A model generated the notes under the pieces. The model saw only the letters and a list, made by a program, of their open reading frames with translations. It ran no database searches and was not told where the DNA came from. Of a stretch of DNA of 4,222 bases, positions 2,953-3,343 are shown piece after piece. Position numbers and translations under genes: made by a program. Source of the DNA: a virus (Duplodnaviria > Heunggongvirae > Uroviricota > Caudoviricetes); IMG/VR virus record IMGVR_UViG_2711768020_000009; one strand, 5' to 3'. The stretch's first letter is position 1. The number at the start of each line of letters is the position of its first letter.

Positions 2953-3055
2953 ATACATATCTGGATTATCACCTGTTACGGTAAAAAGTGATTGCTTACT
3001 GTTTTTGTGAATGGCATTGCAGCAGCCGGATAATGTCAGTGCTGGCTGACGGTGT

Positions 3056-3063
3056 GCTGGTGG
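3056..3063 (+). other. Chi octamer 5'-GCTGGTGG-3' (sequence match only)
   Basis: Exact octamer read on the plus strand, within the small hydrophobic ORF 3033-3119. An 8-mer this common in enterobacterial genomes can occur by chance in 4 kb. Confidence 0.5.
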
Positions 3064-3343
3064 CGGGTGTGGTGGTTGTTGCTTTCCCGTTGCTGAAAAA
3101 GAAAACGCCAGACTGTTAGCCGGGTATCAGTTAGCGGGAGAAATTTTTAAATACTTCACAATTCAGGCGGTTGACTGTTGTCTGGTTTGCGGGGAGTTTG
3201 TTAAAAGAAACTGGCATGGTGAATCCCCCTGTGCGGAGGGGCAATCAGCGAGTAGGTATATGGGATAATCGCGGATTCAGGTGCTGGTACTGAATTCACC
3301 GGGAGGCACCCGGCACCATGCAATGGCACATAGCGCCACTCTC

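Follow-up and report, generated by a model that had tools for sequence, protein, structure and literature searches.

A 28-codon open reading frame in the cargo slot of a lambdoid E. coli prophage probably derives from the 3' half of a tciB gene that has been disrupted

The DNA analyzed here (IMG/VR record IMGVR_UViG_2711768020_000009; the whole stretch of 4,222 nucleotides is called the window) is 99.5% identical, over the searched stretch from position 2500 to 3980, to DNA of a lambdoid prophage in E. coli 042. It starts with RusA and a Q-type antiterminator (partly masked), followed by the genes for tRNA-Ile and tRNA-Arg, which were masked and whose 3' end lies near position 2487. The 28-codon open reading frame (ORF) that is the subject of this analysis is located in the cargo slot of this lambdoid prophage, which is flanked by the Q antiterminator/tRNA genes on one side and by the lysis genes on the other. 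Table 1 lists the features of the window.

Table 1. Features of the window around the 28-codon ORF
Feature	Position	Strand	Evidence
Q-type antiterminator with DnaJ-like CxxCxGxG zinc-finger repeats	1317-2171	+	
108-codon ORF (phrog_2873) in AT-rich stretch	2626-2952	+	PHROG 2873, E 3.8e-70; homologues down to 54% identity
Degenerate remnant of tciA 3' end and tciB start	2960-2987	+	24/28 nt match the junction of the intact locus L092
Ancestral tciB frame, reading VTVK-SDC-LLFL and stopping at TGA 3008-3010	2975-3010	+	Sequence and alignments to intact alleles
15 upstream in-frame codons (VIAYCFCEWHCSSRI), part of the 43-aa RefSeq CDS	2988-3032	+	Annotation; intact-allele alignments
28-codon ORF	3033-3119	+	Translation; Pfam DUF3927; DNA match to L092
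Spacer from tciB stop to STnc100	3120-3184	+	Conserved with intact tciB loci
STnc100 (PasD-related) prophage sRNA	3185-3374	+	Rfam RF02076, 132.4 bits, E 4.6e-30
iraM paralogue (RpoS anti-adaptor IraM)	3400-3735	-	NCBIfam, 162 bits; K-12 iraM about 70% identical at the DNA level
DUF1737 ORF fragment, N-terminal piece of the ~640-aa NanS-p-type sialate esterase of related prophages	3981-4169	+	

A preliminary description of this DNA had regarded the surroundings of the 28-codon ORF as free of other reading frames. This does not apply, because the conserved phrog_2873 ORF ends 36 nt 5' of the codon GTG 2988, which opens the 43-aa annotated form of the ORF. Over its codons 47-115, excluding a mismatch cluster of a single divergent copy, this ORF showed 8 synonymous and 7 non-synonymous SNP sites. 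The reading frame comprises 117 codons if counted from TTG 2599. RefSeq does not annotate it in E. coli 042, but it has the appearance of a genuine cargo gene that has escaped annotation and has replaced tciA, the gene found at this place in intact loci. The DnaJ-like CxxCxGxG repeats of the Q-type antiterminator explain the "chaperone" labels that such proteins sometimes bear beside STnc100 in Salmonella prophages. On the 3' side the iraM paralogue is convergent to STnc100, and the DUF1737 ORF carries a pseudogene annotation in E. coli 042.

The start and stop of the 28-codon ORF were confirmed by translation: the frame from ATG 3033 to TAG 3117-3119 reads MSVLADGVLVAGVVVVAFPLLKKKTPDC, as the preliminary description had stated. 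The peptide contains a hydrophobic stretch of 21 residues followed by KKK. Its size alone is not significant, since 58 ORFs in the window reach 20 aa or more. Even by itself, however, the 28-aa peptide has a match to Pfam PF13064 (DUF3927) with an E value of 7.3e-16 (58.3 bits, curated cut-off 25 bits), and the ORF is therefore not random. Upstream of the ATG the frame stays open to GTG 2988 and is bounded by TAA 2982-2984, which gives a 43-aa form with a stronger match to DUF3927 (E 1.7e-27, 95.6 bits). The ORF also matches PHROG 1470, labelled "TciB-like" (E 7.8e-13). The window copy covers only positions 26-53 of the 53 positions of the PF13064 profile; including the non-homologous leader extends this to 7-53.

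The ORF is already present in the databases. RefSeq lists it as WP_000562553.1, a "DUF3927 family protein" of 43 aa starting at GTG 2988, and this entry is annotated in E. coli 042 and many other genomes; other records annotate this locus as a 28-aa protein from ATG 3033. In the protein collection the exact 43-aa sequence occurs in at least 999 contigs and the exact 28-aa sequence in at least 529. RefSeq takes this ORF as an intact protein, whereas comparison with its full-length relatives shows a 5' disruption.

Full-length TciB proteins, including the one of phage P1, have 54-57 aa. Both of their ends are basic, and between these ends two hydrophobic segments enclose the near-invariant core of the family, DF[ST]SR-IMSVLADG. 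An example from an intact E. coli prophage is the 57-aa protein P0014, MTVKMRLAVVALLLFLVVMVVMVDFSSRIMSVLADGVLVAGVVVVAFPLLKKKTPDC. A DUF3927 profile search of the whole library yielded 110 clusters at 50% identity, almost all of them with 50-64 aa. P1 tciB itself matches DUF3927 with an E value of 7e-31, and P1 TciB is 56% identical to the intact E. coli prophage TciB over the core. Intact tciB alleles vary in the number of copies of the 9-nt repeat GTGGTGATG, which encodes VVM, so that proteins of 54, 57 or 60 aa result; the repeat region was seen at positions 3540-3570 of L092 and in other intact tciB loci. Apparent fusions of DUF3927 to a histidine phosphatase or an ABC ATPase were also encountered; these look like chimeric or frameshifted gene calls, and none of them involves TerB.

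In all 13 loci with an intact protein, tciA, a TerB family gene of 143 aa, is located directly 5' of tciB with a 4-nt overlap (GTGA), and STnc100 lies 3' of the tciB stop in almost all loci that extend far enough. The two genes also abut in P1, where they were named by homology; in phage JLK-2012 the intact E. coli prophage pair is annotated as tciA/tciB. Between lineages, intact tciB shows a dN/dS of 0.2-0.4 at a dS of 0.4-0.8 and is therefore a genuine protein-coding gene under purifying selection. P1 tciA/tciB are non-essential according to CRISPRi data (PMC10695390), and both P1 TciB and the E. coli prophage TciB belong to the non-essential accessory genes of temperate phages. We found no functional study of DUF3927, TciB or the peptide in the literature.

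Intact TciB may be a two-helix hairpin in the inner membrane, whose N-terminal K/R residues and C-terminal KKK both face the cytoplasm (N-in/C-in). This topology rests on hydropathy and the positive-inside rule, because AlphaFold2 gave a single continuous helix over residues 3-52 for the intact family (pLDDT 81, pTM 0.44). The protein is probably a membrane partner or anchor of TciA and would be co-translated with it. A tblastn search of the phage collection with intact TciB returned no match, probably due to low-complexity filtering, but DNA searches did find loci. A scan of GTDB species representatives for relatives yielded no confirmed locus, and no DUF3927 gene is annotated at the iraM locus of E. 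coli K-12.

Comparison with these intact loci revealed how the window copy was disrupted. Homology detected by blastn starts at position 3020. From 3021 to 3249 the window and the intact allele of L092 differ at none of 229 nt, whereas from 2960 to 3020 the identity is only about 80% with several gaps. The last 32 residues of the open frame are identical to P0014. The 28 codons correspond to codons 30-57 of intact TciB and comprise half of the core (MSVLADG), the second hydrophobic segment and, up to the stop codon, the KKK tail. Further upstream the former junction between tciA and tciB is still recognizable in degenerate form; its score was reached by none of 2000 shuffled sequences. Within this remnant the ancestral tciB start GTG has become GTT (2975-2977) and the tciA stop TGA has become TTA (2976-2978), which converts the GTGA overlap to GTTA, and the ancestral ribosome-binding site upstream of 2975 has changed from GGAG to GGAT. 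In the sequence coding for the first helix, between 2988 and 3020, an in-frame deletion of 15 nt and a frameshifting deletion of 14 nt, the latter in the slippage-prone (GTGGTGATG)n repeat, remove most of the helix; because of this shortening the ancestral tciB frame ends at 3008. Residues 2-11 of VIAYCFCEWHCSSRI come from this scrambled, indel-bearing sequence, and GTG 2988 is, by the alignments to intact alleles, a fortuitous and not the ancestral start.

A full-length family member has about 50-57 aa and two hydrophobic segments around the core DF[ST]S[RK]..S..ADG. Only the second of these segments and half of the core are thus left, and no start codon overlaps a tciA stop in the window. 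The window encodes no TerB protein; tciA is absent and the phrog_2873 ORF occupies its place. Like an intact tciB of lambdoid prophages, the ORF is situated between Q and the lysis genes and has STnc100 as its direct downstream neighbour. Compared with P1 TciB (YP_006541.1, 54 aa), the window copy shares the homologous core and the second hydrophobic segment and belongs to the same Pfam family, but neither the N-terminal K/R residues nor the first helix and the DF motif are left in it, and both the ancestral start and the upstream tciA are gone. The P0014 locus is identical to the window in the DNA from 3021 to 3249 and has STnc100 as downstream neighbour as well; in contrast to it, the window has lost the start codon, the ribosome-binding site and the first helix, and tciA has been swapped for an unrelated gene. 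We conclude that the ORF 3033-3119 very probably represents the surviving 3' half of a disrupted tciB.

The preliminary description had considered two origins for the peptide, a type I toxin and a small phage membrane protein. The second origin is supported by the assignment to DUF3927/TciB, with the restriction that the ORF is not a complete gene but the C-terminal half of one. As a type I toxin the ORF would encode a small peptide that depolarises the membrane, and an overlapping antisense sRNA would repress its mRNA. With Hok, Ldr, TisB, Ibs, ShoB, Zor and DinQ it shares a small size and a hydrophobic helix followed by basic residues, but this fit is limited to superficial architecture, and the ORF differs from these toxins in the lack of homology, of an antisense RNA and of a structured leader as well as in its evolutionary origin. 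The proposed check against toxin collections returned DUF3927 and one insignificant match in Pfam and NCBIfam, and no toxin family. The search for an antisense promoter or sRNA over 3033-3119 was likewise negative: no promoter-like site was present on the minus strand in 2950-3200, and the Rfam scan detected no antisense RNA to the ORF. STnc100 is encoded on the same strand and does not overlap with the ORF. The region of the ORF had also been described as structured, but the MFE z-score of 2980-3184 is +0.27, which indicates no stably folded leader, and the structured part is STnc100 (z = -2.26). Furthermore, the peptide is a fragment of a predicted two-helix protein that in its intact form would be co-translated with a TerB-like partner, and it resembles a type I toxin because it corresponds to the last helix of the putative membrane hairpin. 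A toxin function is therefore extremely improbable.

A different possibility is that the truncated tciB still makes a functional single-pass membrane peptide that starts at ATG 3033 (28 aa) or at GTG 2988 (43 aa) and might act alone or interfere with the intact TciA/TciB of co-resident prophages. The hydrophobic stretch of 21 residues with the KKK tail could insert into the membrane with the N terminus outside. For translation, neither ATG 3033 nor GTG 2988 has a usable ribosome-binding site. The Shine-Dalgarno energies are -3.3 and -3.0 kcal/mol, respectively, compared with a median of -2.2 kcal/mol over all ATG/GTG triplets of the window and -6.4 kcal/mol at the intact tciB start. Between the GGA noted in the preliminary description (3028-3030) and ATG 3033 the gap is 2 nt and not 4 nt.

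The window allele is widespread; it was found in 1185 of 5426 complete E. coli genomes and also in the viable phage mEp460_ev081. Conservation of the reading frame had been suggested as a check. All of the 127 copies scored have an open frame from 2988 to 3119, but this is weak evidence for a functional peptide, because it is expected by chance at a divergence of about 1%. The start codons are less constant: GTG 2988 is GTT in 14 of the 127 copies (about 11%), and ATG 3033 is ATA in one. Very common variants affect residues that are invariant in the family: L4P was counted in more than 1000 contigs, G7C in 795. The SNP density of the 28 codons is not below that of the flank, with 0.14 per nt (12 sites in 84 nt) against 0.07 per nt (9 sites in 130 nt) in the non-coding stretch 3120-3249. 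Among 151 copies, 7 of the SNP sites in the 28 codons are synonymous and 5 are non-synonymous (6 with G7C). The binomial P value against neutrality ranges from 0.04 to 0.18 depending on the mutation model, and the power is low, with a ratio of 8:8 in the intact-allele control; the synonymous excess is compatible with weak purifying selection in this low-powered test.

Other phages keep less of the gene. In the viable phage PhiR5_1 about the last 19 codons of tciB are retained, without an ATG, in PhiR12_1 about the last 5 codons, and in Stx2 phages none. The stubs of PhiR5_1 and PhiR12_1 and the junction in the Stx2 phages are all joined to the same STnc100 element, and this nested series looks like a passively retained recombination scar. 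Stubs without a start codon at the same position, together with the missing tciA partner and first helix, argue against a function of the truncated protein, which we consider unlikely. More specifically, ATG 3033 might drive low-level translation of the 28-aa peptide of second helix and KKK tail, and this peptide might have acquired a role of its own, e.g. as a dominant-negative or modulating partner of the intact TciA/TciB of other prophages. Such a role would explain the presence of the allele in about a fifth of E. coli genomes, but we regard it as improbable.

The ORF 3033-3119 is most probably an inert remnant of tciB without a function of its own. Its frame would persist because it has the same sequence as the functional allele and is physically joined to the conserved STnc100, and not because it encodes a functional peptide. 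It may be transcribed passively in the Q-dependent late transcript, possibly also in the transcript of the upstream gene, and would be translated poorly or not at all.

The stretch could also persist because its DNA or RNA, rather than a protein, has a role, e.g. as 5' flank of STnc100, as promoter context, as processing substrate or as a homology patch for recombination between prophages. STnc100 always accompanies what is left of tciB, and the identity with the intact allele from 3021 to 3249 is perfect. In addition, a sigma-70-like sequence, TTGTGA-18-GATAAT, is located on the plus strand at 3005-3034; its -10 element overlaps ATG 3033, and a transcript would begin within the ORF. This match is no better than chance, since 6 promoter-like sites were found in the region and 4.7 were expected. 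Moreover, the spacer is unrelated in tciB lineages of the L015 type, where the STnc100 core comes about 30 nt after the stop. The stretch of the ORF is dispensable for the sRNA, because STnc100 persists in phages with a much shorter tciB remnant or none. A role of this kind is thus quite unlikely.

Taken as an inert stub of tciB, the ORF is an ordinary and already annotated remnant of a known but uncharacterised family, and neither a novel small protein nor a toxin. The finding is of value for annotation, as thousands of database entries call the 5'-disrupted tciB an intact "DUF3927 family protein" of 28 or 43 aa. The locus also illustrates how nested stubs come to be attached to the conserved STnc100 when lambdoid prophages swap cargo between Q and the lysis genes. 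The intact tciA-tciB pair, which is functionally uncharacterised, is a worthier target for experiments than the stub.

Some additional observations concern STnc100. It follows tciB or its leftover in every related locus, with stx2B in this position in Stx2 phages. Its left boundary is a hotspot of recombination: different phages have nested junctions there, at about 3021, 3061, 3116, 3144 and 3156 in window coordinates. A terminator scan placed its intrinsic terminator at 3344-3365; as this terminator has no T-run on the minus strand, iraM transcripts might read antisense into STnc100. In a Ribo-seq study of EHEC, TATGGGATA is listed as the putative Shine-Dalgarno sequence of the copy STnc100_10, which had a high ribosome-coverage value of 3.21 (PMC5331693). 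The same motif is present in the window at 3258-3266, inside STnc100.
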